Shown: positions 32,889-51,972 of the stretch, in pieces | How the letters are laid out: every line of letters starts with the position of its first letter | Position numbering within the stretch: position 1 is the first letter of the stretch | Source of the DNA: an uncultured Bacilli bacterium | Lineage (GTDB): Bacteria > Bacillota_I > Bacilli_A > RF39 > UBA660 | NCBI GenBank assembly: GCA_910586295.1 | Contig: CAJUGE010000090.1 | Coordinates: 1 to 62,217, forward strand | Direction of reading: 5' to 3' | Length of the DNA stretch: 62,217 nt | Program-made: the position numbers and the translations under genes | The notes under the pieces: model-generated | The model's database searches: none | What the model was told of the DNA's origin: nothing | The model's input: the letters and a program-made list of their open reading frames with translations, nothing else

Positions 32889-33353
32889 GTGAAAAAACAT
32901 ATTAAAAGAATTAACATAGTACTACTAATATTATATATAGCATTTCTATTATATCTGACATTATTTAAAAACTTTTTAGGAAGAGAAGAAGGTATATATG
33001 CTATGAACTTAGTACCATTCAGAAATATTTATGGAATAACTCTAGGATGGATAAAAGGTTCACTAACATTTAGGTTTTTTATAAGAAACATTTTTGGCAA
33101 CATCTTAGCCTTCGCACCATTCGCATACTTTTTTATCACTATATTTAATTTAAAAGATATAAAAAAATTTATATTTCTAACATCGGGAATAATTGTAATA
33201 ATAGAATCATCTCAATATTTAATGCAAATAGGTGTATATGATATTGATGACATAATTTTGAATTTAAATGGTTCTATAATAGCGTTTTTAATAATAAGTA
33301 AATCTAAATTAATAAGAAAACTCATTAATATTGGTAACTATTCAGACTTATAG
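32889..33353 (+). CDS. VanZ-like family membrane protein; the last 9 codons are supplied by the IS terminal repeat
   Basis: Four TM segments and an NL(V/I)PF-type motif (MNLVPFRNI), typical of VanZ-like proteins. Codons from 33327 onward lie inside the IS66 inverted repeat. Confidence 0.65.
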   Translation: MKKHIKRINIVLLILYIAFLLYLTLFKNFLGREEGIYAMNLVPFRNIYGITLGWIKGSLTFRFFIRNIFGNILAFAPFAYFFITIFNLKDIKKFIFLTSGIIVIIESSQYLMQIGVYDIDDIILNLNGSIIAFLIISKSKLIRKLINIGNYSDL

Positions 33354-35075
33354 ACACTAAAAAGTTAGAACAGGCTACTGTTCTCTTTTAGTTTATAAAT
33401 AAAACTTCATTATTAAATATTCTCCTAATACTTTCATATGGATTTATATTTCTTTTTATTGATGTCTTTATTATTGATAATGTATTAACAAAATATTCTG
33501 CTGACTTCATACTTCTAAAACCTCCTGATATTTTTGTCTTATTTTTAAATATCCTTAAATCAAGTTCACTTAAATTATCATCAAATGGCACATGAAAGTC
33601 TTCTATAAAGTATAAATGATTTTCCTTGTATTTCTTTAATCGATTGTATAATGATTTTGCCTTTTTCTTATAGTATGATGATTTTATTTGTTTATTTTCT
33701 TCTATAGCTAATTCTAATATTTCATCATATTCTTTTTTATATTCTTCTATTTTTTCATTATCAAACTTTTCTAATTTATACTCTATAGCAATTTTTCTTG
33801 TGTTATTCATTCTAAATATTAAATCATACATTAAAAGTGGCCATTTTATATCTGGTATATTTTCCATTAATTCCATTAAATATCTTCCTAAATGTATGTT
33901 ACATTCATAATTTTTTGTTCCGTAACTATATAATGTTGTATCGTGATCTCCCATTATTCCACCTAAAAACCTTGGAAGTATATTATCTTCTATTACTGGT
34001 TTATGTCCTTTATTTTTATGTGCTTTATATATTACCATATCTTCTGTACTATAGTTTCTTATAAATATATTCTTTCCATTAAACTTTGTTTCAGTTTCAT
34101 CTGTATAACCTTTTGTTCCATTTAAAAATTCTGTTTCTAACACTTCTAAAGTTCTCTCACTTTTCATTCCAAATTCATATAAAAAATTTACTAATGTTCC
34201 ATTTGATATATTTATTACATCATTCGTAATTACTTTAAAGAAGTCATTTAATCTATCATAGGCTATTACATTATAACAGTCTAAATGTATTGCAATACTT
34301 TTTATACTATTTCCATATGTAACATCTGTATAAAACTCTTTGGGTAGTTTGTTATTTGATTTTTTTGAATGTCTAAAAATATGCTTTTCTATAACTGGAG
34401 TTACTTGAAGTTCTATTCTATATTTAATTATATCTTCTTTTTGTTCATCCCCATTAATAGTATGATATACATTAACTACTTTTGCTTTATTTTCATCAAT
34501 TAATTTTTCTATATCTTTTTTACTTAAATTATTTCCTTTATGACCAAATTGTCCACCAATTTTTTGATTGCTTTTAACTCTATAATTATATTGGTTTGCT
34601 CCTGTTTTCTTTTTAGGTGTAGTATAATTAGTTGAAGATGGCTTACTAGAGTTATTACTATTTTTATTATTTTGATTTTTTAGTTTTTCATTTTCTTCAA
34701 TTAACTTTTTATTTTGTTCTTCTAATTTATTAATAGTTTGTTGTAATGATTTAACAGTTGTGTTAAGTTCATATATTGTTAAGTATTGATTTTTATTTTC
34801 TATTATCATCTTATCAAGTTTTTTATTTAAGTCTTCTAGTTGTTTATATAAACCTGTTTCATAGTTTCTCATTCCAGCCATTATTACACCTTCTTTATTG
34901 TTAGCATTTTCTCACATTTTTATAATAAATCAAGTGTTTTGTTTAAACTTTTTTTTAAATTTTATACTTTTTAATAGTTATTCACTTTTTGACCTTATTT
35001 ATTAACATTAAAAAAGTAAGATTTTTAATTTTTTTCTCACTTTCTTACTTTTAAGTCTGAATAGTTACTAATATT
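33327..35075 (-). mobile_element. IS66-family insertion sequence (single-ORF type), about 1.75 kb
   Basis: 24-nt terminal inverted repeats with 23/24 match: aatattggtaactattcagactta (33327-33350) and taagtctgaatagttactaatatt (35052-35075). They flank the transposase gene. No clear target-site duplication was seen. Confidence 0.7.
33388..34881 (-). CDS. IS66-family transposase
   Basis: N-terminal leucine-zipper/coiled coil, GGQFGHKG motif (compare IS66 GGQxGHxG), and the C-terminal block FDDNLSELDLRIFKNKTKISGGFRS (compare the IS66 TNNxAERxxR...K.SGGxRS pattern). Confidence 0.8.
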   Translation of the reverse strand: MAGMRNYETGLYKQLEDLNKKLDKMIIENKNQYLTIYELNTTVKSLQQTINKLEEQNKKLIEENEKLKNQNNKNSNNSSKPSSTNYTTPKKKTGANQYNYRVKSNQKIGGQFGHKGNNLSKKDIEKLIDENKAKVVNVYHTINGDEQKEDIIKYRIELQVTPVIEKHIFRHSKKSNNKLPKEFYTDVTYGNSIKSIAIHLDCYNVIAYDRLNDFFKVITNDVINISNGTLVNFLYEFGMKSERTLEVLETEFLNGTKGYTDETETKFNGKNIFIRNYSTEDMVIYKAHKNKGHKPVIEDNILPRFLGGIMGDHDTTLYSYGTKNYECNIHLGRYLMELMENIPDIKWPLLMYDLIFRMNNTRKIAIEYKLEKFDNEKIEEYKKEYDEILELAIEENKQIKSSYYKKKAKSLYNRLKKYKENHLYFIEDFHVPFDDNLSELDLRIFKNKTKISGGFRSMKSAEYFVNTLSIIKTSIKRNINPYESIRRIFNNEVLFIN

Positions 35076-35097
35076 GTAAAATAAGTTACGGAAATTA

Positions 35098-35126
35098 TTG
35101 ACATCTGTATTAAATTATGGTACAAT
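35098..35126 (+). promoter_or_regulatory. Sigma-A promoter (extended -10)
   Basis: TTGACA (35098-35103), 17-nt spacer, TGgTACAAT. Confidence 0.6.
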
Positions 35127-35150
35127 AATAAATCGTTAAAGGAGGATAGC

Positions 35151-35834
35151 ATGAAAGATAATTACTTTAAATTTAATTTATATGGTAACACATGGGGAGA
35201 ATTTGCACAAACAGGAGAGTATATATTTCAAAATTCTAATAAGAAAATTACAAAGAATAGTTGTTTACCATTCCTAGTATTTCATTTTGTTGTTGATTAT
35301 AATTTATCAGATTTAGAGTTGTTTTTTAAACTAGCAGGATTTATTTCTTTTACAGAAGAAGAACTTCCAAGAAATATAGTTGTGCCAGAAAATATTAACT
35401 TAGCAAATAAAAGAAATTTTCATAACGGATTACTTGGTGGTTTTAAAGATAAAGAAAGTGCTGAAAAATTTATTGAATCAGAATTAGGAAAAGGAACAAT
35501 ATCTAAATTTAAGGAAATAAAGAGAAAACAATTAGAGCTCACAGAAGAAAGTCAAAGACTACAAGATTATAAGGAAAAGGTGTATCAAGTTTTTAATCTT
35601 TGTGAAAAGTGTAATTTGGATGGCCCATTATGGATGAAAGCTTTTGAAATTTACCTAGAAGGAAAAGGTTTAGGAGTTACTGGTCAATTATTAGGACGCC
35701 ACTTATTACTTCAAGCTGAAGAATATACTTTATCAACTTGTCGAACTGATGAAGCAGAAGCTTTAATAAGAGAATTGTGCAAAACAATTAAGTCTGACTT
35801 AGGCTTAGAAGAACCAACAAAGAAAAAAGAATAG
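35151..35834 (+). CDS. Hypothetical protein
   Basis: 227-aa ORF with a strong SD (aaaggagga). No family recognised. Confidence 0.5.
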   Translation: MKDNYFKFNLYGNTWGEFAQTGEYIFQNSNKKITKNSCLPFLVFHFVVDYNLSDLELFFKLAGFISFTEEELPRNIVVPENINLANKRNFHNGLLGGFKDKESAEKFIESELGKGTISKFKEIKRKQLELTEESQRLQDYKEKVYQVFNLCEKCNLDGPLWMKAFEIYLEGKGLGVTGQLLGRHLLLQAEEYTLSTCRTDEAEALIRELCKTIKSDLGLEEPTKKKE

Positions 35835-35847
35835 ATTTTATAAGTAG

Positions 35848-35878: not shown

Positions 35879-35952
35879 TTTATCCAAACAAATAAAAACT
35901 TTATAAAAATATTCACTTATGTTATACTTGATTCAAGGTAAAGGTGATTGTT

Positions 35953-38631
35953 ATGAAAAAACGTGCAATATTAATAGATGGAAACAACTTATTATTTAGA
36001 AGTTATTTTGCAACTGCATACAGTGGAAACTTAATGAAAAACTCTAAAGGTTTTCCAACCAATGCATTATTTGGATTTGTAAACATGATAAATAAAATAA
36101 TAACAGAAGAACAACCAGAATATGTTATGGTGGCATTTGATAAAGGAAAAAGTTTTAGACATAAAGAATATGCGGAGTATAAAGCAGGAAGAAGCGAAAC
36201 TCCAAACGACTTATTAGTACAGTTTCCACGTGCTTATGAAATACTTGATGCAATGGGGCTTCCAACAATAAGTATAGATAACTATGAAGCAGACGATATA
36301 ATCGGAACATTTGCTAGAATGGCTGATGAAGACGAATGTTATAATGCTACTATTGTGAGCAGCGATAAAGACTTACTCCAACTTATAAGCAAAGAAGTAG
36401 ACGTAAAACTCTTAAAACAAAAAGATTATATTATAATGAATGAAGAAACATTTAGAGAAACTTATGGTATTGAACCAATAAGAATAATAGATTTAAAATC
36501 TCTAATGGGTGATGCAAGTGATAATATTCCAGGAGTTAAAGGAATAGGTGAGAAAACCGCACTTACTTTGTTAAAAGAATATGGGACACTGGAAAGCATA
36601 TACGAGAATATTGAAACAATAAAAGGTAAGCTAAAAGAAAAACTAGAAACGGACAAAGATAATGCTTTTTATTCAAAATACTTAGCAACAATCTATAAAG
36701 AAGTGCCACTTAATATGACTTTTGAAAACATAAAAATAAGAGAAAAAGATGACAAAAAATTACTTAGTATTTATGAAGACTTAGAATTTTTCTCATTAAT
36801 AAAGAAAGAAAAACAGAAAGAAAATATTGGTGAAGACCAACTATCTTTATTTGATACAGAAACAAAGACTCAACAAGAAGATACAATTGATGTGCTCGAT
36901 ATAGAAGAAACTACAAATGTATTATATCCAGAAAACATAGATTATGATGTTATAGATGGAGAATTTGACTTAGATAGTGACTTTGCATTTTATTTAGAAA
37001 TGGATAAAGAAAACTATCATTTTGCTAACATTTTAGGTATGTCAATTTATGATGGAAATAAAATTTATTTTTTAACAAAAAGAGGGATTCTAGAAAATAA
37101 AGACATATTCACTCATGCTACTTCAACCTATGACTTGAAAAAAGCAATTGTAGTACTTAATAGTCTTGGAATAAAACTCCCTAATTGCACTTACGATACA
37201 ATGATTGCCTCTTACTTATTAAATGATAATGTGAAAGAAGATATAAGTTATATTGCTAAAACCAAAGGATACAGTGTAGAATTCTATGATATCTTAGTAA
37301 AAAAAGAACAAATAGTAGACGAGGACATATTTAGAAAAAATTTAAGTTTAAAAAGTAAATTTATTTATGAAACTAAAGAAACTTATATTAATGAATTAAA
37401 GAATGAAGAAATGTTAGAATTATTCAATAACATTGAAATGCCTTTAATAAATGTACTAGCAAAAATGGAAATAGAAGGAATAAGAGTAAATCCTAATATA
37501 ATAGATGAAATGAGAGAAGAACTAGAAGCAAAATTAGATGTAATTAAGAATGCAATTTACGATTTAACTGGTGAAGAATTTAATATATCAAGTCCAAAAC
37601 AATTAGGAGAAGTATTATTTGAAAAACTTGACCTTCCACACGGCAAGAAAAAAGGTAGAAACGGTTACAAAACAGATCATGATACATTAGTAAAACTAAT
37701 AGATAAACACCCAGTAATAGCGGTCATTTTAAAACACAGAAGTCTTAATAAACTACTAAATTCCTATATGAATAGCATTAATGATTTTATAAAAGAAGAC
37801 GGAAAAATACACCCAATATTTAAACAAGCAATTACTAGAACAGGAAGACTTTCTTGTACAGAACCAAACTTACAAAATATACCAATTAGAAGTGAAGAAG
37901 GCAAGCAAATTAGAAAAGCATTTCTTCCAGAAGAAGGTCATATAATAATGTCTAGTGACTATAGTCAAATAGAACTTCGTTTACTAGCGCATATCTCAAA
38001 ATGTGATTCACTTATAAATGCTTTCAATCATCATGAAGACTTACATACAAAAGTTGCAAGCGATATTTATGAAATACCAATTGAAGAAGTAACAAAGGAT
38101 GAAAGAAGAACAGCAAAAGCCGTAATATTTGGAATTGTATATGGAATAAGTGGTTTTGGACTAGGCGAAAACTTAGATATCAATGTTAGTGATGCCAAAA
38201 AATTCATTGATAAATATTTGAATATGTATCCTGGTGTAAAAAACTATATGGAAAAAATAGTTGAATCCGCTAAAGAAAAAGGATATGTTAGAACAATAAT
38301 GAATAGAAAAAGAGAAATAGAAGAACTTAAAAATCCAAATCACATGATTAAAAAGGCTGGAGAAAGAATGGCACTTAATACACCAATACAAGGCTCAAGT
38401 GCGGATATAATCAAAAAAGCAATGATAGAAGTAGACAAAGAAATAACTTCTAGAAATTTGAATAGTAAATTGATAATTCAAGTTCATGATGAATTAGTAT
38501 TGACTGTTCCAATAGAAGAAAAAGAAATTATGGAATCTCTTGTAAGAGAGGTAATGGAAAATACTTTCAATCTACTTGTGCCATTAAAAGTGGAAGTAGA
38601 TAGTGGAAATAATTGGTATGATGCTAAATAG
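35953..38631 (+). CDS. polA: DNA polymerase I
   Basis: 5'-nuclease domain (ILIDGNNLLFRSYFA; GDASDNIPGVKGIGEKTA). Pol A motifs A (SDYSQIELR), B (RRTAKAVIFGIVYG) and C (QVHDEL). Confidence 0.93.
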   Translation: MKKRAILIDGNNLLFRSYFATAYSGNLMKNSKGFPTNALFGFVNMINKIITEEQPEYVMVAFDKGKSFRHKEYAEYKAGRSETPNDLLVQFPRAYEILDAMGLPTISIDNYEADDIIGTFARMADEDECYNATIVSSDKDLLQLISKEVDVKLLKQKDYIIMNEETFRETYGIEPIRIIDLKSLMGDASDNIPGVKGIGEKTALTLLKEYGTLESIYENIETIKGKLKEKLETDKDNAFYSKYLATIYKEVPLNMTFENIKIREKDDKKLLSIYEDLEFFSLIKKEKQKENIGEDQLSLFDTETKTQQEDTIDVLDIEETTNVLYPENIDYDVIDGEFDLDSDFAFYLEMDKENYHFANILGMSIYDGNKIYFLTKRGILENKDIFTHATSTYDLKKAIVVLNSLGIKLPNCTYDTMIASYLLNDNVKEDISYIAKTKGYSVEFYDILVKKEQIVDEDIFRKNLSLKSKFIYETKETYINELKNEEMLELFNNIEMPLINVLAKMEIEGIRVNPNIIDEMREELEAKLDVIKNAIYDLTGEEFNISSPKQLGEVLFEKLDLPHGKKKGRNGYKTDHDTLVKLIDKHPVIAVILKHRSLNKLLNSYMNSINDFIKEDGKIHPIFKQAITRTGRLSCTEPNLQNIPIRSEEGKQIRKAFLPEEGHIIMSSDYSQIELRLLAHISKCDSLINAFNHHEDLHTKVASDIYEIPIEEVTKDERRTAKAVIFGIVYGISGFGLGENLDINVSDAKKFIDKYLNMYPGVKNYMEKIVESAKEKGYVRTIMNRKREIEELKNPNHMIKKAGERMALNTPIQGSSADIIKKAMIEVDKEITSRNLNSKLIIQVHDELVLTVPIEEKEIMESLVREVMENTFNLLVPLKVEVDSGNNWYDAK

Positions 38632-38642
38632 GAAAAGATTTA

Positions 38643-38670
38643 AAGTAAGACGAAACGCTTACTTTTTTCT
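38643..38670 (+). terminator. Rho-independent terminator after polA
   Basis: aagtaag / cttactt stem followed by TTTTT. Confidence 0.6.
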
Positions 38671-38730
38671 TTACAAAATAATTGCTTATGGTATAATATG
38701 ATACAAAATCAAATTATAAAAGGAGAAAAA

Positions 38731-41037
38731 ATGAAGAATTATAAAACGTTTTATGAGAAGTTTAATTGTTCTAAGTCATTAGTTGACTTAGCAATAAGGC
38801 TTTTATCAGAGAATTATATAAAAATAATATACTTAAAACATAGCGAAAGCCTAATTTCGGAAGAAAGTGTAGATTTAACACCATGTGATCTATCATGCTA
38901 TTACTTAGCATTATCAAAAACTAATGATATTGTAGAATTTCTAGAAGGAGAAAATGTAGATGAAGAAAAAGCAAAAATATTATTAAATGATGGAGAAAAA
39001 CTAGAAGAATTAAAAAAGTTATATAGGGAAAAACATAAAAAAGCAAGAGAATATAAAAGTTTCTTTTCAAACTTTAAAGAACCAGAATATCTAGTTAGAT
39101 TAGCAATTATGATGACACCTGATACTTATAAAGAGACGCTATATAAAAAATATGGACAAAATCTTACTGATACAACTAGCAAATTAGAATTAACTCTAAA
39201 TGACACTAAAAAGATAAGTACTAGATTTATAAATATAATCAAAACAATATTAGAATTTTTAAAATCTAAAAATTTAAGTGAACAAGAAGTGGAATTAATA
39301 TTATCAGATAAGGAAAAACTGAAAGCTTTAATAGAAGAATTTAAATATTCAAAAAAGAAAACAAGAAGAATATTTTCGTTATTTACAGAAAATGAATCAA
39401 TAATTAGACTTTCTTTAACATTTTTAACATATGAACAACAAGAATTTTTAAAATCCATAATAGGAATAGATTATAATGATTATATAACGTTAAAGAGTAA
39501 GAAAGAAGAAAAACAATTAAAAATAACTAAAAGTAGAATTGAAACTATATTAAAATACTTAAAATCATTTGAAATAACTGAGGAAATAGCAGAGAGTTTT
39601 CTAGAAGGAAAAAATTTAAGTGAATATATAAAGCTAAAAATTAATTTTCGTCCTAACATAAGTTTTTATAATTCTTTAGAATATCTAGAAATTGAAGAAA
39701 AATTTTTTTCTATAAATAAAATGCCTATGTTATATAGTGACTTAGCAAGAATTAATATAACACCTAATGATGTATCACTTTTGTTAGAAAATGAAGAAGC
39801 CTTAAAACTTGTAGAAAAAGAATGTGAAAAAATAATAAAGTCTAATTTACCGTTATCAGGACCTTCAAAAAGTTTTTATAGCAAGTTTAACGAAAATAAA
39901 ATATTAGTATTACTTGCTTCAAGATTACTAAAAGAGAAAGAAAAAAATATATTGTACAAAAAGTATGATAAAAACTTAAGCAGCCCACTTCCTAGAAGAT
40001 TAAGTAATAACGAAAAAGGCTATTTATATAATGTGATTATTCCTCATATGAAAAAGATATTAGAATTCTTAAACAATATTAATTTATCTTTAAAACAAGT
40101 GGCATATCTTTTGAGCCCTATTGGTAAAGAAGACTTAGAACTTTTAAAATCCAAATACTATAGTACAAAAAATAGAAAAGCTTCTAGAAAAGCTTCTAAT
40201 AATATATTAATTGGTTTATTAGATATAATTAAAAAAACAGAATATTTAGTAAGACTCGCGATTTTATTCTTACCTGAAGAGTATAGAAATGTAATATTTC
40301 AAAAATATGATAAAGATTTAAATAAAATACCTAACAATAAATTATCTGAGCAAGTTAAAAATAAGATTAGTTATGCCATTGTCTTAATGAAAAGTATAAT
40401 AGAATATCTAGAAAATAAAGATATAACAGAAGAAAACTATTTATATTTAATAAGTGAAGAAGGAAAAGAAGACTTAGAAAAATTAAAGAATGAATACTAC
40501 AAATTAAAAATTTCTAAATCATATATTATGGGAAATTGTAAGCGATACAAAAGTTTTTTCTCTTATTTTAATTGTCCTAAACACATTACAAAATTTGCAG
40601 TTTTATTCTTAGAAGAAAAATATAAGAATTTATTATACAAAAAGTATGATAAAGATTTGGAAAACATAAAACTTAAGGAAGATGTTTCTAATGTAGATAC
40701 TTCTACAATCTATAATTTAGTAATACCTAAAATACAAGAAATAATAGATTTTTTAGATAAGGAAAATATTAGTGATAAACATATTTGTTATTTATGTAGT
40801 GAAAAAGGAACAGAAGATTTGAGAACTTTAATAAAAATGTATAACACTAAGAGAAGAATTAAAAGGTATAAAAAAGTAATTTTTCCTTCTTCAAAAAATT
40901 ATTCGGATGAAGAAAAGATATTAATACTTTTACAAAAATATGAAGGAAACATAAATATAGGAATGCTTAGTGAAATACTTAATATTAATAAAACTGAGGT
41001 ATTTGATACTTTTGTAACATATAAATTAAAACAATGA
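38731..41037 (+). CDS. Repeat protein built from 6-7 tandem modules of about 105-115 aa, each resembling a sigma-70 region-4-type HTH; function unknown
   Basis: Recurring module: YKSFFSNFKEPEYLVRLAIMMTPDTYKETLYKKYGQNL ... ILEFLKSKNLSEQEVELILS..EKLKAL. Module starts fall near aa 15, 119, 224, (321), 391, 503 and 617 of the tracked ORF. ATG 38731 has the SD aaaggaga. Confidence 0.6.
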   Translation: MKNYKTFYEKFNCSKSLVDLAIRLLSENYIKIIYLKHSESLISEESVDLTPCDLSCYYLALSKTNDIVEFLEGENVDEEKAKILLNDGEKLEELKKLYREKHKKAREYKSFFSNFKEPEYLVRLAIMMTPDTYKETLYKKYGQNLTDTTSKLELTLNDTKKISTRFINIIKTILEFLKSKNLSEQEVELILSDKEKLKALIEEFKYSKKKTRRIFSLFTENESIIRLSLTFLTYEQQEFLKSIIGIDYNDYITLKSKKEEKQLKITKSRIETILKYLKSFEITEEIAESFLEGKNLSEYIKLKINFRPNISFYNSLEYLEIEEKFFSINKMPMLYSDLARINITPNDVSLLLENEEALKLVEKECEKIIKSNLPLSGPSKSFYSKFNENKILVLLASRLLKEKEKNILYKKYDKNLSSPLPRRLSNNEKGYLYNVIIPHMKKILEFLNNINLSLKQVAYLLSPIGKEDLELLKSKYYSTKNRKASRKASNNILIGLLDIIKKTEYLVRLAILFLPEEYRNVIFQKYDKDLNKIPNNKLSEQVKNKISYAIVLMKSIIEYLENKDITEENYLYLISEEGKEDLEKLKNEYYKLKISKSYIMGNCKRYKSFFSYFNCPKHITKFAVLFLEEKYKNLLYKKYDKDLENIKLKEDVSNVDTSTIYNLVIPKIQEIIDFLDKENISDKHICYLCSEKGTEDLRTLIKMYNTKRRIKRYKKVIFPSSKNYSDEEKILILLQKYEGNINIGMLSEILNINKTEVFDTFVTYKLKQ

Positions 41038-41040
41038 AAA

Positions 41041-41069
41041 AAACACGTAAAATTTAAACTTACGTGTTT
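41041..41069. terminator. Bidirectional terminator between convergent genes
   Basis: aaacacgtaa / ttacgtgttt 10-bp stem flanked by an A-run and a T-run. Confidence 0.65.
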
Positions 41070-42322
41070 TATATAACTCTAGGACTTCTCTCGAACTCTT
41101 TATGTAACTGCTTAGTAGTCCATAGTAAACTATATTTAGTGTAGCTTAAGATGAAATCAAATTCGCCTAAGTATTCATAAACTCTAGGATTCCATAACAT
41201 TTTAAAGTCATTTAAACCTTTATAAGGACTATCTTTACTAAAATCTCCTGCCATTCCATTTAAATCAAGAAAATTAAATCCTTCTTGCTTGTAATTAGTG
41301 ATAAGCATATAATGAAGAAAATGATTAGGTAAAAGTTTGTTATAAGATTTATTAAATCCACTAACATATATACTTGCAACACCATTATATTTGACAACCA
41401 AAGCACCAGCAATGATTTCTTTATAAATGCCATTTTGTATCTTTGAATTAATATCGCCAATTTCTTTATTTAAATCATTTAATGTTCTATCACTATCCAT
41501 TTTTTCTTTATAAATATCTTTATTAGACGTATCTTCTCTAAAAACTTTATTTATTCTTTCATTTATGCTAATCTCAGTAGCATACTCGTCTTGTAAATTT
41601 TCTAAATAATTATGATAATCAACTTCTACTAAAAATAAATCTATCATGTCACTTTCTTTAAAAACTTTATATAGTATCTTGTAAAAATCAGATGGTCTAT
41701 CATTCTTTCTCTTGATGAGTTCATATAAGTCATTTATATTATAAATATCTCCTTTAATGAGTTTTAAACCTCTAGAGTGTATTTTATCTAATTTCTTTTG
41801 TATTTTTTCATCTAAGTTAGAAAAACTAAAACTTTTCAAATTTAATATAGGATTATACTTAGTTAACATACTCTCAAAATAGACATTGTTCTTAAGTCTT
41901 TTATAGTCATTTTTCTCTAAATAATTATATAACTTACTAGCAGGTTCATTAATGTTTTTAGTATCTGTACTAGGAAAAACCTCGCTGTAAGTGATTAATG
42001 GATCTATTTTAATAAAAGCGTATCCTCTTCTTTTGAAAAATTTCTTAATTCCTTTAGAAAACTCAGTAAATAATTCCTCATTAAAATAATCGATTAGAAA
42101 ACCTCTAGGAGCATAACCATATTTTACATTAAGAGAAATAGATTTAGTAAGAACTAAAGAAGCACCAATCATATTCTCATCTATGAAAGCTCCTACATAG
42201 ACATCCATGTATCCATTCTTTGACATCACAGTACCATATTCTTTTGTTTGATAAAAACTACTTAAAACATGAGTCTTAGAGAAAGCGTTAAATTCATCTT
42301 TTGATATTTCTCTTATAACCAT
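41069..42322 (-). CDS. FemAB-family peptidoglycan interpeptide-bridge aminoacyltransferase (FemX/MurM-like)
   Basis: Two GNAT-like halves split by a coiled-coil insert. FYQTKEYG near the N-terminus and F(K/R)xxWNP near the C-terminus are typical FemAB features. ATG 42322 has the SD ggagggagag. Confidence 0.7.
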   Translation of the reverse strand: MVIREISKDEFNAFSKTHVLSSFYQTKEYGTVMSKNGYMDVYVGAFIDENMIGASLVLTKSISLNVKYGYAPRGFLIDYFNEELFTEFSKGIKKFFKRRGYAFIKIDPLITYSEVFPSTDTKNINEPASKLYNYLEKNDYKRLKNNVYFESMLTKYNPILNLKSFSFSNLDEKIQKKLDKIHSRGLKLIKGDIYNINDLYELIKRKNDRPSDFYKILYKVFKESDMIDLFLVEVDYHNYLENLQDEYATEISINERINKVFREDTSNKDIYKEKMDSDRTLNDLNKEIGDINSKIQNGIYKEIIAGALVVKYNGVASIYVSGFNKSYNKLLPNHFLHYMLITNYKQEGFNFLDLNGMAGDFSKDSPYKGLNDFKMLWNPRVYEYLGEFDFILSYTKYSLLWTTKQLHKEFERSPRVI

Positions 42323-42450
42323 AATTCTCTCCCTCCCTTGATAACGTCTAGTATTATAGCATATATTGTACAGTTTGTCTAAGAAAATATGCACTCTTGT
42401 TATTTATATTTAAAAATAGTATAATTGTATATTATGAGAGGTGAACAAAA

Positions 42451-43840: not shown

Positions 43841-45502
43841 ATGTTAGAAGAAAGAGAACTGCAAACAAAAATTTTGATGGTAACAAAAACTTTAGAGTAT
43901 ATTGAAGAACTGGGATTTAATTTAGAAAAAGAGAAAAGTAAACTAGATAAGATATTAAATGGTACATTTAGTGAAAATGGTAAGATATATAAGTTCAGTA
44001 GTTTAAAAAAGACAATAGAGTTAGAAAAACTTTTAAAAGACTTAAAAAGGTTTGATGAATATTTTAAATTGCTAAATGAATTAGAGTTTATAAAAAGAGC
44101 GCTTACACAAGAAAAATTATCTGATAAATATATATTTAATATAATAGAATTTATAAAAAGACTAAGGACTTGTAGAGTTATCTTAGACGATACTCAAAAG
44201 GAAAAGTTGCATGAAATATATATAACTTTATACAATATTATTTTAGTAGAGATACTTAATAGTGAAGATTTTGACAGTAAAATATTAAGGCAAATGACAG
44301 AAGATAAGTTTGATGAGTATATGCTTAATGAAATTATTTTGGAAGAGATAAAAAGACTAGAAGATTATTCCTATTTAGAAATATCAAGTTATAATTTATT
44401 AAGAGATAATATATTATTCCTAAAATCTCAAGGAGTAAAGAATTTTGCTAGATTAGAAATTATGTCCAAACTTTTAGCGTGTATACATCCAGAAAAGGTC
44501 CGAGAAAGATTAAACGGTGATTTATCTGCATTATACGAGTCTATCAGTACTAACAATCAAAATATAAATATGAAGCTTACTTTACTAGATACGATATTAG
44601 AAAAATATAACTACATTAAGTCTAATATATCTAAGGAAAAGATGAACAAGACACTCTTATCGTTTTTACTTACATTTTCTATAAGTTTAGGTATAGGTGG
44701 TATGGGAGCAAAGGTAGCTAGTGACTTATCAAAACAAAAATTATATAAAACAGAAACTACAATATATAACAGCTTTACTGACTCAGTAACAACCACAGAA
44801 TCTTGGCAAACTGAACTTGAAAGAACATTCACTAGAAATAGGGTAGATTATTCTACACCGTATTGGAGCAAAACTAGAAAGAGTTATGTATTAAATATAG
44901 AAACATTTGACTTTACTGACCGTTATAGAGGAGAATCATATGAAGAATGTTTAAATAAATCATATATATCTAGTTTAAGTATAAATGATGAATATAAAGA
45001 AATATCTGAAGAAGAAGCACTAACTATTTTAGAAAATATTTCAACCGATTACTTGGTTTGGGCAAAAGAAATAGTTGACACAACACAAGACAAAAGTGAA
45101 TATATAGAAGAAATAAATAAAAATACACTTGTAACATTGTTAGCAGATTTATATGCGCTTTTGATTTTGGCTCTTTGGGTATTAGATAAAAAATATAAAG
45201 CAGGATTATATAGTAAAATTAAAGAGATGATAGAAGTAATAAAAACTTCTAAACTTACAAAGAAAGATTACAAATTTCTTTCTTTAGAATATGAAAAAGT
45301 ATTTAAAGAATATGAAGATTACATAAAAAATAATCAAGAATTAAATGAAATATACCAAAATACTAAAAGAGAAATGCTTAATACTCTGGGTGAAAGTTAT
45401 AAAGATGAGCAAGCTTTGGTGGATTTAATAGAAAAACTAGAAAGTAAACTTGATGAAATAAAACCAGAAGATATAAATTATACTAGAAAATTAGGAAGGT
45501 GA
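43841..45502 (+). CDS. Array paralog 1: two-TM hairpin membrane protein, unknown family
   Basis: Helical N-domain of about 270 aa. TM1 TLLSFLLTFSISLGIGGMGAKVA (about aa 271-293). Exposed domain of about 135 aa. TM2 LVTLLADLYALLILALWVL (about aa 430-448). Coiled-coil tail. Basic residues flank the cytoplasmic sides. Confidence 0.7.
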   Translation: MLEERELQTKILMVTKTLEYIEELGFNLEKEKSKLDKILNGTFSENGKIYKFSSLKKTIELEKLLKDLKRFDEYFKLLNELEFIKRALTQEKLSDKYIFNIIEFIKRLRTCRVILDDTQKEKLHEIYITLYNIILVEILNSEDFDSKILRQMTEDKFDEYMLNEIILEEIKRLEDYSYLEISSYNLLRDNILFLKSQGVKNFARLEIMSKLLACIHPEKVRERLNGDLSALYESISTNNQNINMKLTLLDTILEKYNYIKSNISKEKMNKTLLSFLLTFSISLGIGGMGAKVASDLSKQKLYKTETTIYNSFTDSVTTTESWQTELERTFTRNRVDYSTPYWSKTRKSYVLNIETFDFTDRYRGESYEECLNKSYISSLSINDEYKEISEEEALTILENISTDYLVWAKEIVDTTQDKSEYIEEINKNTLVTLLADLYALLILALWVLDKKYKAGLYSKIKEMIEVIKTSKLTKKDYKFLSLEYEKVFKEYEDYIKNNQELNEIYQNTKREMLNTLGESYKDEQALVDLIEKLESKLDEIKPEDINYTRKLGR

Positions 45503-45506
45503 ACTT

Positions 45507-47189
45507 ATGCAATTTGAAATGCCAATATTTAAAGGAATAAAAAGAAAGAAAAAAGAAGGATTTATTAGTGAATTATCAGACGAACTAGTAAACGTAGAAA
45601 TAATGATAAGTAATATAGAGAATAGTGAAATCTCTATAGATATAGAACAAGAGAAATTAGAATTAGATGAGCTAAGACAAGAAATTGATGCTAATTACAT
45701 TACTAGTGAAAAAGTAGGTACTTCTATAATAGGTGTTTATCAATCTATGACTGATAAATTAATGAATATAAAATCAAGAATAATAAAATATGAAAGTTTG
45801 ATATTATTAATGAATAAGGCTTATTACTTAGAAAATGCATGTAAAAGTGGAGAAGTTGCGAAAGATTTTAATTCATTTGTTTCACTATGTTTAGAGATAC
45901 TTACAGATTTGGATAAAATAAAAGTAAGTATTGTATCAAAATATAAAGATTCATACGAGAAAATATATAGAATAATTTATGAATTTATAAAAATAGAAAT
46001 ATCTCATACTTTAGAAAGTAAAGTTTTAGAAAGTTTAGTGAGTCAAAAAACAGCTGTTTATTATATTAATAATATAATGAGAGATGAAATAAACAATATA
46101 AAAGAGCGTACATTCAATAACCCTAAATTAATAAGTAGACTTGATATGCTTACAAATAAGAATACTTCTTCTAGCTTAGCAAGCGATATTGTTAGCAAAG
46201 ATGTCATATTTACGATAGTACTAATTACAAATGAAGAAGAAGTAATGAAATCATTAAACAGTAAAATGGATGGTATCAGAGTGCAATATAGTGAAAATTT
46301 AGAAGAGATTAATTCCTATTTATATTCTAATTCTGGTTCTGATGATCCTGTTGGTAAGATTGTACAAAGTAAAATAGATTTAGAACATCATAGGCAACAA
46401 TTAAAAGAAACAAATAAAGAATTAAAGAAAAAACTTATAGCACTTATTATTTCAACTACACTAGTAACAGCCATAGGTCTAAACTTGCCTTCTATAGGTA
46501 AACATTTTAATACTAAATATGTAACAACTACTGAAATTTATGAAACAGGAAAAGAGCCTATTTCATTATCTTCGTATGAAGAGAAAGCTAGTGATATAAA
46601 GAGAACATTAGATATTTATAGTGAAACGTATGAAGATTGGGGAAAAACTTATACAGACTATAAAAAATATGATGTTACAGATGTAATTATAGAAAGTGTG
46701 AGTGAAGAAGATTATCTATATATAGATGTTGATTCCTTTGGTTTAAAATCTTATGACTCAAGGCAAGAAAATGTTACAGAAGAATCAAAAGAAGTAAGAC
46801 AACTTACAGTAGTAAAACAAGACCATGTAAACGGGAGTATTTTAGATGAAGATGATTATAGAACTTTTCTTATAATTGCCTATTTAGTTCTTGCTTTTGA
46901 ATCAATATGGGAAACAATTGGCCCATTAAATAACTTTATAAAGTGTATAAAATTAATTAATGATGGTGATTCAAGAGCTACATTTGTAAATATATTTTAT
47001 GAAGAGTTAAGAAAACTAATTAAAGAGTGTGAAAAATATATAAAATCTAACAAAGATTTAGAAGCGGAATACTACAGTATTTATGATGAATTAAAGTACT
47101 TAACTACAGAAGAAATTGAAGATAAGTTAAAATCTTTAACTGTACAAAACAGTGAATATAAAAAAACTTTAAAGGCTTATAAGGAGTAG
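45507..47189 (+). CDS. Array paralog 2 (same family)
   Basis: 4-nt gap from paralog 1. KKKLIALIISTTLVTAIGL (TM1), KYVTTTEIYE, DYLYIDVDS, LTVVKQD, FLIIAYLVLAFESIWETIGPL (TM2). Confidence 0.7.
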   Translation: MQFEMPIFKGIKRKKKEGFISELSDELVNVEIMISNIENSEISIDIEQEKLELDELRQEIDANYITSEKVGTSIIGVYQSMTDKLMNIKSRIIKYESLILLMNKAYYLENACKSGEVAKDFNSFVSLCLEILTDLDKIKVSIVSKYKDSYEKIYRIIYEFIKIEISHTLESKVLESLVSQKTAVYYINNIMRDEINNIKERTFNNPKLISRLDMLTNKNTSSSLASDIVSKDVIFTIVLITNEEEVMKSLNSKMDGIRVQYSENLEEINSYLYSNSGSDDPVGKIVQSKIDLEHHRQQLKETNKELKKKLIALIISTTLVTAIGLNLPSIGKHFNTKYVTTTEIYETGKEPISLSSYEEKASDIKRTLDIYSETYEDWGKTYTDYKKYDVTDVIIESVSEEDYLYIDVDSFGLKSYDSRQENVTEESKEVRQLTVVKQDHVNGSILDEDDYRTFLIIAYLVLAFESIWETIGPLNNFIKCIKLINDGDSRATFVNIFYEELRKLIKECEKYIKSNKDLEAEYYSIYDELKYLTTEEIEDKLKSLTVQNSEYKKTLKAYKE

Positions 47190-47192
47190 AAT

Positions 47193-48689
47193 ATGTTTTT
47201 CAGAAAATTAACTGAATTTGGACAAAGAACGTCAAAGCTTAATGAAGTTAATAATTTACTAGACTATTTAAGTAGTCTAGGTTTTGACATGATAGAAAAA
47301 AGAAAAGAATTAAATAAGATATCTCCTTATAAACTAAACGAATTTATAGAGAGTTTAAACATAGAATATCTTGGAGTAATCGTTTCATCTAATTATTTAC
47401 ACAAAATGAATAATATCTCATCTGACTTTAGATTTGAATATAAGTTACAATATTTTGTAACTGTTTCAAAAGAATTTCTAGAAAAAATAGACTTAACAAA
47501 TTTAGAATTAAATGATAAATGTGAAGAATACATAAACAGTGCTATTAAACTTTTATATGTTGTTATAAAATCAGAAATATTCTATACTTTTAAAAGCGAA
47601 ATATTAGAACTAGTAAAAACAAATAATAAAATATCTAACATTATATCTTCGTTTATAGAAAAGGAAGTAGAAGAATTGTTTAGAAGTTCATTTGTTAGTA
47701 ATATGCTTGCATTAAAGAAACTGGAAGAACTAATTAACAATAAAGATTATCTTGACTTAGAAGTTCTTATTAACCTTTACATGTGTACTAATCCAGAAGA
47801 AATAAACCATGGTATGAAAGAAGATCTTAAAAGAAAAGAAACGGAGTTACTAACTAGGTTGGATAGTATTACAAGTGAATTAAGTAGAAGCATTATAATC
47901 AAAAATAATCAAGAAGAACTAGCGCATCTTGCATACAAAATAAGATGTCTTGTAAGAGAAAAGCAAGATAAAGTATCACATATAGTATTAAGTTCTTTAT
48001 TATTATTAGGTTCTTGTTATATTGTACCTAAGGCAGCTACACCTTTATCTACGGAGTACTTAATTAATGAGTCTATATATACAGTTGATGAAAATGGAAA
48101 TGAAGTATTGGTTAATGAACAATCTTACTATGATAAAATACTAAGGGGAGATAAAGTTACATTGAGAGTTTATGACAAAACAGAAAACCATATAGATTAT
48201 AGAGTTACAGAAGTATATGAAGATGTAAAGGTGTTAATAGAAGAAGAACTAAAGTCAAGAAATGTTATAGACTCTGGAGAGTATAAAGAAGTGGTATTTA
48301 AAGACATAGACACAGGTGATACTAGAATTGATGAATCATCTAAATTAAGTATATGTATACAAGGATATATTTTATCTTTATTATTTCCTGGTGGAGGCTT
48401 AATTTACAATATAGCAGAATACCTCAAATGCAAAGAAGGAATAAACTATCAAAAAAGAAGACAAGAAGATTCTATTAATTTGATTGAAAAAACAGTTGAT
48501 GAACTATTAGATAGACTTAGCGAGAACAAAGAAATAGAAAATAAATTTTATCAAATTCTAGATAGCTTGAATTTACCAATTGATAAAGAAAATTTTATAA
48601 GTGAAATCGAAGCGTTAATAGAAAGAAGAAAAAATATTGAAGCTAAATTAAATGAAGAAGTATATTTAGCAAAAGTATATAGAAAGTAG
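47193..48689 (+). CDS. Array paralog 3 (same family, shortest)
   Basis: 3-nt gap. LLDYLSSLGFDM N-motif. TM1 IVLSSLLLLGSCYIV. TM2 LSICIQGYILSLLFPGGGLIYNIA. Confidence 0.7.
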   Translation: MFFRKLTEFGQRTSKLNEVNNLLDYLSSLGFDMIEKRKELNKISPYKLNEFIESLNIEYLGVIVSSNYLHKMNNISSDFRFEYKLQYFVTVSKEFLEKIDLTNLELNDKCEEYINSAIKLLYVVIKSEIFYTFKSEILELVKTNNKISNIISSFIEKEVEELFRSSFVSNMLALKKLEELINNKDYLDLEVLINLYMCTNPEEINHGMKEDLKRKETELLTRLDSITSELSRSIIIKNNQEELAHLAYKIRCLVREKQDKVSHIVLSSLLLLGSCYIVPKAATPLSTEYLINESIYTVDENGNEVLVNEQSYYDKILRGDKVTLRVYDKTENHIDYRVTEVYEDVKVLIEEELKSRNVIDSGEYKEVVFKDIDTGDTRIDESSKLSICIQGYILSLLFPGGGLIYNIAEYLKCKEGINYQKRRQEDSINLIEKTVDELLDRLSENKEIENKFYQILDSLNLPIDKENFISEIEALIERRKNIEAKLNEEVYLAKVYRK

Positions 48690-48697
48690 TGATATAA

Positions 48698-50362
48698 ATG
48701 ACTAATGAAAGTCTAAATTTAGAAAGTAAAATACTAAAATTAGAAGGAATAATGGATGAGTTAGAAAGTATAGGTATTAATACTGCAGATAAGCGCGCTA
48801 CTCTTAATAGTACCATAAATAAGAAAGTAATTCTTGGAAATACTGCTTATGAAGAAATGTCTGAAGCTAATAAGTTACAGCTTTTAGAAAAAGTTACATC
48901 AGAGTTATTAGAATATAGTGATTTACTTAATATTTCTAGAATTATAAACTTTTTGACACTTGCTTCAGATGAATCTGCAGAAGAAAAAGTAGAAGAAACG
49001 ATGAAACTTATTAATTTATTAAGAGTTAATAGAGAAAAACTATCTACAAATCATAAATTATTAAGAAGAGTTTATAGTTCTATTTATGATGTCATAAAAA
49101 TGGAATATACTCTATATTTAAGAAGTGATATATTAGAAACTATTCTAGATAGTAAAGAAGATGTAGTAAATATAGAAGCTTTAGTAGAAAAAGATATAAT
49201 AGATTTAAAGAAGAATACATTTGTTGAAAGTAAAGAAGCTCTTGATTTACTATTAACAGAAGAAGCAAGAATCAAATTAAAAGAAATTAATCCGTCTTTA
49301 GTAACTGAAAAAATAATACTATTGCTTGTAATATGTACCAATAAAGAAAGAATGAGTGAGAACTTTAAAATGGAATTAGAATTCATTCTAAGAAGATTAT
49401 CGACTAACAGTAAAGCTATATCTAATAATACATTCTATGACCAAAAGTTTAGATTAACAAAGAGACTTTTAAATATTAAAAAAATTAGAGAAGACTATAA
49501 AAAGAAATTAATAGCTTTAGTTCTAAGTTTTAGCTTATTTACTGGAGTTTCTCTAACTTCTAACCTACTTATAAAAAGATTATGCACTAAAGAACTATTT
49601 AATACAACTAAAGAAACAATAGAATTAATAAACGGAGAATATTATAGAAATACTGATAACTATTATGGTACTAAAGTAAGTGAAGATGAAAAGATTGTTT
49701 TAAGATTGTATAATCAGTTATATACAAATACTAGAAACTTCACTGAATACGATTTAAAAAATGCTATTAAAGATACAGCAGAAAACTATTTGAATATTGA
49801 TTTAAATAGTGGTGGGGTTAGTGAAAAATTTGTTTTGAATGATGTTAAGAATTATGAAGATGATGAATTTTACTTAGAATTTTCTGAAGGCTATAGAGAA
49901 TTAACATTAATAGAACAAGACTTAAACGACGGTTATACAGACTACAATGAAAAGTTCCATTATATATCTCTTGCAATAATATATCTCGTATTACTTATAA
50001 GTGCATTTACGCCTATAGGACCCATTAAAAAGTTAAGAGAGATATTGGAGTTAAAGAAAGATTACAAAAGTAACATTAAAGACAGAGATAAAACTATAAA
50101 AATTATAGAAGAATATATTGATTCTTGCAAGCTTAAAGTAGAAGAAAATAAGTTACTAAAAGAAAAGATTAGAATAATGATTTCTAGTGGAATATTAGAA
50201 CTTGAAGAAGAAACACTTAAAGGAAATATAAAAAGATTATTAGATGAATTGGAACAAGGAACTGTAAAAAATTTAGATGAATTTCTAAGAGCAGTAGTGT
50301 CTAGAGAACATAGTTCACTAACAAATGAAGAAAATTATAAGAAGCTAAAAATAAAGGAGTAA
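48698..50362 (+). CDS. Array paralog 4 (same family)
   Basis: 8-nt gap. KKKLIALVLSFSLFTGVSL (TM1), NYLNIDLNSGG, LTLIEQD, ISLAIIYLVLLISAFTPIGPI (TM2). Confidence 0.7.
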   Translation: MTNESLNLESKILKLEGIMDELESIGINTADKRATLNSTINKKVILGNTAYEEMSEANKLQLLEKVTSELLEYSDLLNISRIINFLTLASDESAEEKVEETMKLINLLRVNREKLSTNHKLLRRVYSSIYDVIKMEYTLYLRSDILETILDSKEDVVNIEALVEKDIIDLKKNTFVESKEALDLLLTEEARIKLKEINPSLVTEKIILLLVICTNKERMSENFKMELEFILRRLSTNSKAISNNTFYDQKFRLTKRLLNIKKIREDYKKKLIALVLSFSLFTGVSLTSNLLIKRLCTKELFNTTKETIELINGEYYRNTDNYYGTKVSEDEKIVLRLYNQLYTNTRNFTEYDLKNAIKDTAENYLNIDLNSGGVSEKFVLNDVKNYEDDEFYLEFSEGYRELTLIEQDLNDGYTDYNEKFHYISLAIIYLVLLISAFTPIGPIKKLREILELKKDYKSNIKDRDKTIKIIEEYIDSCKLKVEENKLLKEKIRIMISSGILELEEETLKGNIKRLLDELEQGTVKNLDEFLRAVVSREHSSLTNEENYKKLKIKE

Positions 50363-50365
50363 GCT

Positions 50366-51961
50366 ATGCAGGAATATATGAATAGAGAAATGCAAGATGA
50401 AAGAGTAAATAAATTAATGGAATTTATGAGTATCTTAGAATCTACTGGAATTAATTTATCTGAACAAAGAGAATATTTAACTACTATATTAAACAGATGT
50501 AATGTTAATAGTAATACAAAAGAAGCATTAGAAATATTTGCTTATGAATTAGGAACTTTAACGGAAAATTTATCTTCTTATAAAAATTTAGTAAAGATTA
50601 TCAAAATGATAGAAGAACTAAAAGAACTGAATTACTCAGAAGAAAAAGAGGAACAGGTTCAAAGACTAATAGAACTATTAGAAGAATATAGAAGTAGTGT
50701 AGAAGTAGAATATCCTAAAAATATTATAGAGAGTGCTTTAAAATGTATATTAGATGAAATTAAAGAAGAAATAAAAAATCATTTAGATAGTAAGACATTT
50801 GATGTTGTTTCTAAAGATGAATTTTATACTAAATACTTTAATGAACTTATAAAAGAAGAAATAGAAGAACTAAAATCATTGTCATTCTTATGCTACCCTA
50901 AAATGTTGGAAACTTTGCAAGAGGAAATGAATAGATGTAAAAATCAATTATTTGATAAAAGACTAATAACTTCTCTAATCGCTTGCCAAGAAAAAGAAGA
51001 ATTAATGAATGCTACAAAACCTTATTGTCGTTCTAAAAGATATACACTAGATGCAAATAATTATAGGATAAAGTCATTAAGTGATAATGATAGTCTATAT
51101 GCTACGTTTGAATCTTTAAAAAAATATAAAGAATTAATATTTAAAGCTAAAAAACGAGTACCATCTTTATTATTAACTGGTATTTTACTTTCTGGTATTT
51201 CTTTAGGAGTACCACAATTTGCAAAAAAATTCAGTATAAAATCTTCATATAAAACAACTACAGAGAAATATAGTTTAGACTCAGATGTTCATAATGAAAG
51301 CCCCTTAGAAAGTTTTGAAGAGTTACTAAATGAGAATGGACTTCAAGTAACTATGACTGTACAAGGTGAATTAACAAAAATAAATCATAATCATTATCAT
51401 AGAACAGAAACAGTATATGATGTAACATCTAAGGGTGTAGAAGAACCTTATTATTATCTTTATTTAGATTTAGAAAATAATTCTGAAATAACTAAGATAT
51501 CTGAAACCACTTTAGAATGTACTGATGAAGAGTATACTGATGAAATAAGAAATCTTACAATTATTAAGCAAGATTTGGAAAATAAAGAAGACTATACTGA
51601 CGAAGAATTATATAAAGAACTTTGTAGTTTATCTTATATAACAATACTAGCATCTTCTTTAATTCCAGGTTTTCCAATATTTAATTTAATTAGTATAACG
51701 CTAGATTTAATAGAAGCACATCGAAACAAAGAGCATTTTAAAAAATATTTAAACTTACTTAGTGAAGAATTAGAAGAGTGTCATAAGAAAATCTTAGAAA
51801 ATGAAGAAATTAGAGATTATTATAACTTTTTATTAAATAGTGGTATAATGAATAAAAGAGATGATATAGTAGAAATGCTATTGAGCGAATTAGTTTATTA
51901 TCAGAAAAAGATGGAATCTAGAGAAAAAGAAGCATTAGAGTTAAAGAAAATAAAAATGTAA
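50366..51961 (+). CDS. Array paralog 5 (same family)
   Basis: 3-nt gap. TM1 SLLLTGILLSGISLGV, YKTTTEKY, YYLYLDLENNS, LTIIKQD, TM2 ITILASSLIPGFPIFNLISI. Confidence 0.7.
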   Translation: MQEYMNREMQDERVNKLMEFMSILESTGINLSEQREYLTTILNRCNVNSNTKEALEIFAYELGTLTENLSSYKNLVKIIKMIEELKELNYSEEKEEQVQRLIELLEEYRSSVEVEYPKNIIESALKCILDEIKEEIKNHLDSKTFDVVSKDEFYTKYFNELIKEEIEELKSLSFLCYPKMLETLQEEMNRCKNQLFDKRLITSLIACQEKEELMNATKPYCRSKRYTLDANNYRIKSLSDNDSLYATFESLKKYKELIFKAKKRVPSLLLTGILLSGISLGVPQFAKKFSIKSSYKTTTEKYSLDSDVHNESPLESFEELLNENGLQVTMTVQGELTKINHNHYHRTETVYDVTSKGVEEPYYYLYLDLENNSEITKISETTLECTDEEYTDEIRNLTIIKQDLENKEDYTDEELYKELCSLSYITILASSLIPGFPIFNLISITLDLIEAHRNKEHFKKYLNLLSEELEECHKKILENEEIRDYYNFLLNSGIMNKRDDIVEMLLSELVYYQKKMESREKEALELKKIKM

Positions 51962-51972
51962 GTGGAGGATTT

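Follow-up and report, generated by a model that had tools for sequence, protein, structure and literature searches.

The gene at positions 38731-41037 on the forward strand of CAJUGE010000090.1, a 62,217-nucleotide (nt) contig analysed over its full length (hereafter the window) and belonging to an uncultured Bacilli bacterium of low guanine-cytosine (GC) content, encodes a protein of 768 amino acids (aa) followed by a stop codon, the same open reading frame (ORF) that the original prediction from this DNA had delimited. The protein is shown here to belong, in free-standing form, to an unnamed protein family found in uncultured Bacilli of low GC content. That family is built from a helical unit of ~75 aa that arose through duplication and remodelling of sigma-70 region 4 (sigma-4). 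From sigma-4 the unit retains helices one and two together with the '(R/K)YG-x-DL' junction; a conserved loop ('DLxNP' in most relatives) takes the place of the first helix of the helix-turn-helix (HTH), and a single long helix of basic character closes the unit. Each array, of 1-20 units, is capped by a single sigma-4-type HTH, and in the subfamily of the window protein two extra helices per unit give modules of 105-115 aa.

Tandem modules and the family they define

The repeated nature of the protein was examined by BLASTP searches of 110-aa chunks against the same protein with the query region masked (a self-BLAST of the whole protein gave the identity match only), and the chunks found matches elsewhere in the protein at expectation values (E) of 1e-8 to 1e-21 and 30-45% identity. 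Six modules of about 95-113 aa are clear in the protein; besides these it has a half-module that is degenerate and a tail of 53 aa. A profile of the family recovers six modules on the window protein with domain E of 1.8e-10 to 5.7e-24 and places the seventh at aa ~306-367 with E about 1, its match being limited to the second half of the unit. Both the tandem organisation and the degenerate state of the fourth module (nt 39646-39861), as originally predicted, are upheld by these comparisons, and this half-module is also the stretch least conserved against the ortholog of a sister species (34% identity). Tandem Repeats Finder detected no DNA repeat of the module period, which argues that the module duplications are ancient.

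A Pfam scan of the whole protein and of every module at E<=10 found no Sigma70_r4, GerE or HTH family except for a weak match of the tail to HTH_11 (E 0.027). A comparison of the modules with Sigma70_r4 and HTH families, which the original prediction had itself proposed, thus gives no direct match for the protein or its modules, and the likeness to LuxR-type HTHs that had been suggested beside sigma-4 is not supported, the window protein having neither a GerE match (PF00196) nor a receiver or ligand partner domain. Sigma70_r2 gave no match to the window protein, whose module 1 begins at residue 3. No match to the protein was found in NCBIfam, PHROGs or PADLOC, nor in a PDB sequence search with the single protein and the module profile, and Rfam held nothing relevant. 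A word-indexed search of 5.8 billion proteins returned nothing beyond the window protein itself and two fragments, and a scan of 2.9 million viral contigs with unit patterns yielded no relatives.

The family was reached with a profile (A2) built from the window's own six modules and run with HMMER exhaustively against 1.84 billion representative proteins, where it found 93 representative clusters at E<=1e-3, 13 of these at E<=1e-30. The window modules match the broad family with whole-database E down to 1e-107, and still with 7e-22 for P0017. Across the family the core unit recurs with a period of 70-85 aa in arrays of 1-20 copies per protein, with the consensus ..TIYEYF..SKEEVD.AI..LS.EEK.LL..(R/K)YG.DL.NP....L...E...FY...IPKIKK.L for the core unit and KYKTIYEYFKESKEEVDEAISKLSEEEKELLYKKYGEDLDNPNKKKLSKEEKKKFYNKIIPKIKKILEKL for the family profile. 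The window protein falls within the family as defined by at least two tandem core units, carrying six modules by profile, and its own modules find the family reciprocally. Six clusters (P0002-P0007) form a close subfamily with a long module of 95-120 aa; since the remaining clusters are built from the 70-85-aa core unit, the second half of the window modules is regarded as a subfamily-specific insertion. The second helical unit per module that had been predicted is therefore present as modelled helices, and its interpretation is corrected here to that of an insertion.

In about one third of the family (31 of 94 proteins), a complete N-terminal sigma-70-type factor stands ahead of the array, as illustrated by P0011, on which Pfam recognises Sigma70 r1.2, r2, r3 and r4, and by P0013 with r2 and r4. 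The source names follow the same division, the fusions being called 'RNA polymerase primary sigma factor' or 'sigma-70 family RNA polymerase sigma factor' and the array-only proteins 'hypothetical protein [Bacilli bacterium]'. Many array-only members begin with a unit at residues 2-10, exactly at the start of the unit, which indicates that the sigma-less architecture is genuine and established. The original prediction had called such a polypeptide without region 2 highly unusual; region 2 is indeed absent from the window protein, but the protein is not a one-off: it belongs to a family of which 31 of 94 representatives do have a sigma domain.

Sixteen metagenome loci were inspected, most of which hold a sigma domain with 1-2 units and the tail, with a GC content of 23-29% in the six measured. 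Locus L021 carries dnaG and a canonical rpoD and, further on, a second sigma factor (regions 1.2-4) fused to a unit and the tail, with three free-standing two-unit paralogs directly behind the fusion. In L014 two sigma fusions lie side by side, and in L010 a plain sigma factor is located two genes upstream of the fusion.

Two side observations concern these relatives. Pilin-like proteins with an N-terminal methylation motif (Pfam N_methyl) adjoin sigma fusions in unrelated metagenome loci (L021 4976-6664 and L010 10745-11140), which may be a coincidence or may point to a regulon for pili or competence. The repeats of some relatives also match Pfam DUF6559, with E 3e-12 and 47 bits for P0017 and 30.8 bits for P0026, both above the cut-off of 27, while an ORF at 3181-4404 of L007 scores 26.7 bits, just below it; the core unit may thus be what DUF6559 models in part. 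The full-text literature searched contained no description of tandem region-4 repeats, nor of DUF6559. What is known of the domain is its sigma-4 ancestry; the tandem HTH-less arrangement, and its occurrence joined to sigma factors, are undescribed.

Descent from sigma region 4 and the predicted fold

For the first half of the core unit, descent from sigma region 4 is supported by four independent lines of sequence comparison. Pfam Sigma70_r4 is matched by the repeats of P0017 and P0021 at E 9e-14 and 4e-14 (51-52 bits, cut-off 24.1), a score that is the sum over repeats, each spanning only profile positions 1-22 of 50. Among single units, a weak match to Sigma70_r4 was obtained for 10/14 and to Sigma70_r4_2 for 8/14, and no other family recurs likewise. 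When 15 rows overlapping genuine region-4 or tail segments were removed from the unit alignment and 512 rows kept, the cleaned unit profile aligned to genuine region 4, as taken from the sigma domains that occur within the family, with an hhalign probability of 91.5% (E 8e-7, 51 columns), and the reversed unit profile used as a control gave E 0.49. MAFFT, offered both, spontaneously placed tails of the region-4 type over the unit. Taken by themselves, the six modules of the window protein gave an hhalign E of 0.008 and a probability of 5% against region 4; because they are too few to reach it, the sigma-4 link of the window protein is transitive, through a chain of profiles.

The last ~50 residues are conserved across the family, and a tail profile matches the tails and also picks up, within the same set of proteins, genuine region 4.2 in the N-terminal sigma domains (E 1e-12 to 1e-18). 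These observations were further strengthened by hhalign, with 98.6% (E 5e-16) for family tails against genuine region 4 and 95.9% (E 6e-9) for the tails of the window's subfamily against family tails. The HMMER tail profile alone did not reach the window tail, and it matched P0006 of the same subfamily at 3e-4. The tail is a second sigma-4-type domain, a region-4-type HTH, in agreement with the final HTH-like tail of the original prediction.

The structure of module 7 with the tail (aa 603-768, 166 residues) was predicted with AlphaFold from an 84-row alignment (A4) of collinear family segments. An earlier alignment (A3) was discarded, as MAFFT had stacked family tails on the module and this would bias the model towards sigma-4; a single-sequence prediction of the full protein was unusable, with a predicted local distance difference test score (pLDDT) of 35. 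The model of module 7 and tail has a mean pLDDT of 96.2 and a predicted template modelling score of 0.86. It comprises a short helix at residues 7-10, helices 15-22 and 27-37 as the equivalents of sigma-4 H1 and H2, a 14-residue non-helical stretch (38-51) corresponding to the 'DLxNP' region of relatives, a 24-residue helix (52-75), the subfamily-specific helices 80-86 and 92-115, and the tail helices 124-134, 141-148 and 152-165, which form an HTH of three helices. Because the first HTH helix is absent from the model, the module is not a canonical HTH, although the modules derive from sigma-4. The claim that they are sigma-70-region-4-like HTHs is thereby divided, descent from region 4 being supported by the profile chain and the HTH itself being missing from the modelled module. 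In Foldseek searches, SigH, SigW, SigK, sigma-28 and PhyR appeared near the top, none of them significant, and the tail alone superposes on winged-HTH proteins over ~44 residues (e.g. 2ia0, probability 0.93, root-mean-square deviation 3.4 A).

The gene, its alleles and its surroundings

The gene has its own promoter, Shine-Dalgarno sequence and terminator, as had been predicted (Table 1). The promoter is the top-scoring site within 38400-41300. An alternative ATG at 38698 would give a longer ORF of 779 aa; as this codon lies directly behind the -10 box, which it abuts, and has no Shine-Dalgarno sequence, the ATG at 38731 is preferred as the start. The 768-aa protein shows neither a signal peptide nor a membrane segment (maximum Kyte-Doolittle average over 19 residues, 1.25). 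The window has a GC content of 23-34% per 2-kb windows, mostly 25-29%, and the gene is flanked upstream by polA (35944-38631, +) and downstream by a convergent FemAB-family gene (41069-42394, -) followed by enolase. No phage or defence link emerged, PHROGs and PADLOC giving no match and the neighbours being chromosomal housekeeping genes.

Table 1. Coordinates of the gene, its signals, the protein modules and the sites of conspecific indels in the window
Feature	Position	Strand	Basis
Coding sequence, 768 aa + stop	38731..41037	+	Identical protein in public collections (P0110)
Sigma-A-type promoter: -35 TTTACA 38670-38675, 16-nt spacer, extended -10 TGgTATAAT 38689-38697	38670..38697	+	11/12 matches, TG present
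Shine-Dalgarno AGGAG, 5 nt ahead of ATG 38731	38721..38725	+	Sequence
1-nt deletion site, codon 3	38739	+	Conspecific L003-L006
1-nt insertion site, A4 -> A5, codon 274	39551..39555	+	Conspecific L003-L006
Module 1 (aa 1-104)	38731..39042	+	Domain E 6e-18, family profile
Module 2 (aa 105-211)	39043..39363	+	E 1.6e-20
Module 3 (aa 212-305), more divergent and weaker	39364..39645	+	E 1.8e-10
Half-module 4 (aa 306-377), degenerate; only the second, subfamily-specific half recognisable	39646..39861	+	E about 1, profile positions 35-99
Module 5 (aa 378-490), most basic module, net charge +15	39862..40200	+	E 5.7e-24
Module 6 (aa 491-602)	40201..40536	+	E 4.8e-18
Module 7 (aa 603-715)	40537..40875	+	E 1.3e-23; AlphaFold pLDDT 96.2
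C-terminal tail (aa 716-768), three-helix sigma-region-4-type HTH: EEKILILLQKY / IGMLSEIL / KTEVFDTFVTYKLK	40876..41034	+	hhalign, model
Intrinsic-terminator hairpin, 12-bp stem, flanked by A-run and T-run, between the convergent 768-aa gene and FemAB-like gene	41040..41070	.	0.3 expected in shuffles

Conspecific loci share the order polC, vanZ, an ORF, polA, the gene, FemAB (-), enolase and a paralog array. In four samples (L003-L006) a shared allele, 99.6% identical to the window, carries two frameshifts that split the gene into ORFs of 154 aa and 438 aa. No Shine-Dalgarno sequence precedes the 438-aa piece, which is thus unlikely to be translated efficiently. Clustering at 90% brings together 28 members, with the gene at full length on ~11 contigs; among the pieces, the first residue is aa 127, 331, 553 or 600, or the last is aa 558, and several of them lie on contigs of 20-64 kb, which indicates at least four disruption sites among the cluster members. 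As conspecific strains carry frameshifted, split alleles, the gene is dispensable in nature. Phase variation was considered and not adopted, as the two indels sit in TT and A4 runs and not in long tracts. A further strain (L002, 99.7% nt identity over the gene) has a minus-strand gene of the histidine-phosphatase family upstream (L002 1-853, compared with window 38500-38664) instead of polA. Its homology with the window begins at ~38664, just 5' of the -35 box, so that the promoter is kept and a rearrangement breakpoint is placed at the promoter of the gene.

A sister species ('Bacilli bacterium' JAAVYQ01) has a 770-aa ortholog of 53% identity with the same seven-module layout, in which the start codon and the tail are conserved, and split alleles (171 + 551 aa) occur there as well. 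The adjacent FemAB is 90.6% identical between the two species. By the Nei-Gojobori method, the non-synonymous divergence (dN) of the window gene against the sister species is 0.27-0.37 and its ratio to the synonymous divergence (dN/dS) is ~0.3, compared with a dN of 0.05 and a dN/dS of ~0.03 for FemAB, all values being rough with dS near saturation. The gene is real, accessory and fast-evolving, under weak purifying selection. Directly upstream of the ortholog, the sister species carries a second, shorter family member (L001 25-426, JAAVYQ010000065.1) of the P0006 type, with three modules and the tail (385 aa when complete), at the place where the window organism has polA.

Elsewhere in the window, an IS66-family transposase gene is found at 33388-34881 (-) (Pfam DDE_Tnp_IS66, 1e-16), within a wider region of 33267-35847. 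The ~2.6 kb around this gene have no counterpart in L003-L006, where vanZ is separated by only ~820 nt from the ORF that precedes polA. This ~2.6-kb region looks like a strain-specific insertion of a transposable element, beside a divergent 227-aa ORF (35151-35834) without a Pfam match. Further downstream, seven tandem paralogous ORFs of 498-560 aa occupy 43841-53589 and 54648-56276, with pairwise identities of 22-28% and E down to 1e-34. Neither of the two that were tested against Pfam matched, and five have one predicted membrane segment at ~aa 310-450 (four at 419-449). The array is kept in the conspecific loci and encloses queA (53592-54638).

Candidate roles and relation to known systems

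We tentatively favour a reading in which RNA polymerase, or else an alternative sigma factor, is the partner of the window protein, which would serve as a scaffold or would modulate, or compete with, the contacts made by sigma-4. This link is suggested because the array is fused to a sigma factor in about one third of the family and because free-standing copies lie beside a fusion in L021. The modules would form an elongated protein-interaction scaffold at promoters, to which the tail would contribute at most one DNA- or flap-binding sigma-4-like head, and the effect would be that of a modulator or competitor of sigma-4 contacts rather than of six independent HTH DNA readers. A sigma-modulating role is plausible since the array is a C-terminal extension on those complete sigma factors, and regulatory C-terminal extensions are described for sigma factors of the extracytoplasmic function (ECF) groups ECF41, ECF42 and ECF56-type, e.g. 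SigG1 with a SnoaL_2 extension (PMC7730460). In the present family, however, the extension is a sigma-4-derived tandem array with a second sigma-4-like HTH and not a SnoaL, tetratricopeptide or zinc-binding domain, and the window protein is the extension alone, without the sigma part.

Several points weigh against this reading. The window protein itself matches no curated family, and its molecular activity is putative. The alignment given to AlphaFold was assembled by ourselves from family members, and in Foldseek searches no structural neighbour of the model reached significance, the best E being 1.3 in PDB and 0.47 in BFVD. No sigma gene and no other family member lies within the window, and the other neighbours of family members are unrelated housekeeping genes. 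The window tail is acidic (isoelectric point (pI) 5.2) and lacks the basic residues and the Arg/Gln-rich recognition helix of sigma-4, so that DNA binding by it is not assured and even the tail, judged from its residues, may not bind DNA. Finally, the dN/dS values are rough because dS is near saturation, and the frequent frameshifts could signal a decaying gene and not a regulator.

Direct DNA binding would offer another explanation, each module being an independent, remodelled sigma-4-like domain and the protein reading or coating long AT-rich tracts, possibly as the nucleoid organiser that had been suggested for it. In favour of this are the origin of the modules from a domain that binds DNA, the conservation and basic nature of the long helix at the C-terminal end of the unit ('IPKIKK..L'), and the basic charge of modules 2, 5 and 7 (pI 9.3-10.0) and of the whole protein (pI 9.06); Myb repeats and TALEs, moreover, are precedents for DNA reading by helical units in tandem. 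With Myb/SANT repeats, TALE and mTERF proteins the family shares tandem small helical units that derive from or resemble HTH domains, but there is no match in sequence or fold, the unit size (75-113 aa) differs, and DNA binding by the units is putative. The modelled module has no helix-turn-helix and no HTH family is matched; modules 1, 4 and 6 are acidic or neutral, and so is the tail. Family members differ in copy number between 1 and 20, so that a fixed register of binding is not evident. A nucleoid organiser in particular would not be frameshifted in many conspecific strains, nor diverge five times faster than FemAB. Retention in all strains, as expected of a nucleoid-associated protein, is contradicted by at least four frameshifted samples and at least four disruption sites. 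We consider a multivalent DNA binder unlikely on balance, the nucleoid organiser included.

Similarly improbable in our estimate is a mimic or decoy, in which the modules imitate the surface of region 4 and titrate a sigma-4 partner, be it the beta-flap tip, an anti-sigma factor or an activator. The logic is that of PhyR, an anti-anti-sigma factor whose sigma-like domain mimics an ECF sigma factor and captures NepR. A decoy would fit modules that retain the H1-H2 core of sigma-4 with the DNA-reading part lost, as well as the free-standing copies adjoining the sigma fusion in L021, and sigma factors and PhyR are among the top Foldseek rows. Those matches are not significant (E above 1), however, the partner is hypothetical, and no anti-sigma-like gene adjoins the window gene. 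With PhyR the window protein has in common a sigma-derived domain outside a functional sigma factor, but it lacks a receiver domain, a sigma-2-like part and a NepR-like neighbour, so that the relationship is conceptual only. The decoy also overlaps with the favoured action on RNA polymerase or a sigma factor, from which it differs in the direction of effect only.

A functionless remnant of a sigma fusion, which has lost its sigma part and drifts with the window allele among the last undamaged ones, would account for the disruption sites (at least four independent ones in one species-level cluster), the split alleles in the sister species, the fast divergence and the 438-aa piece whose efficient translation is doubtful, yet it is improbable given a dN/dS of ~0.3 and not ~1, the start codon, seven-module layout and tail kept in an ortholog of 53% identity, the strong promoter and Shine-Dalgarno sequence retained, and the many free-standing members for which the sigma-less form is an established architecture.

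Compared with sigma-70 region 4 itself (PF04545 Sigma70_r4 and PF08281 Sigma70_r4_2), the units have in common with it helices one and two as well as the 'L..L.eeek.ll..(R/K)YG' signature, the C-terminal tail of the family is a full sigma-4-type HTH, and many relatives are real sigma factors. The window protein differs in having no regions 1.2, 2 and 3 and in carrying six to seven modules in tandem, which lack the first HTH helix and reach no Pfam threshold. Sigma region 4 is among the best-studied DNA- and polymerase-binding domains of bacteria and is known in a single copy per sigma factor. The family described here multiplies it up to ~20 times, in copies without an HTH that are either fused to complete sigma factors or separate from them. 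It is conceivable, though we would rather bet against it, that the family represents a new class of transcription-initiation regulators in uncultured low-GC Bacilli, in which HTH-less sigma-4 tandem modules, fused to alternative sigma factors or free, mimic or extend in a multivalent manner the contacts of sigma-4 with RNA polymerase and the free form is switched on and off by frameshifts in natural populations.

Since neither Pfam nor NCBIfam has a model for the family, a family definition would improve annotation, and the frameshift polymorphism within one species supplies natural knock-outs for tests of function. Overall, if the arrays do contact RNA polymerase, they would constitute a novel means of adjusting how promoters are recognised in Bacilli with small genomes, in which classical regulators are few.

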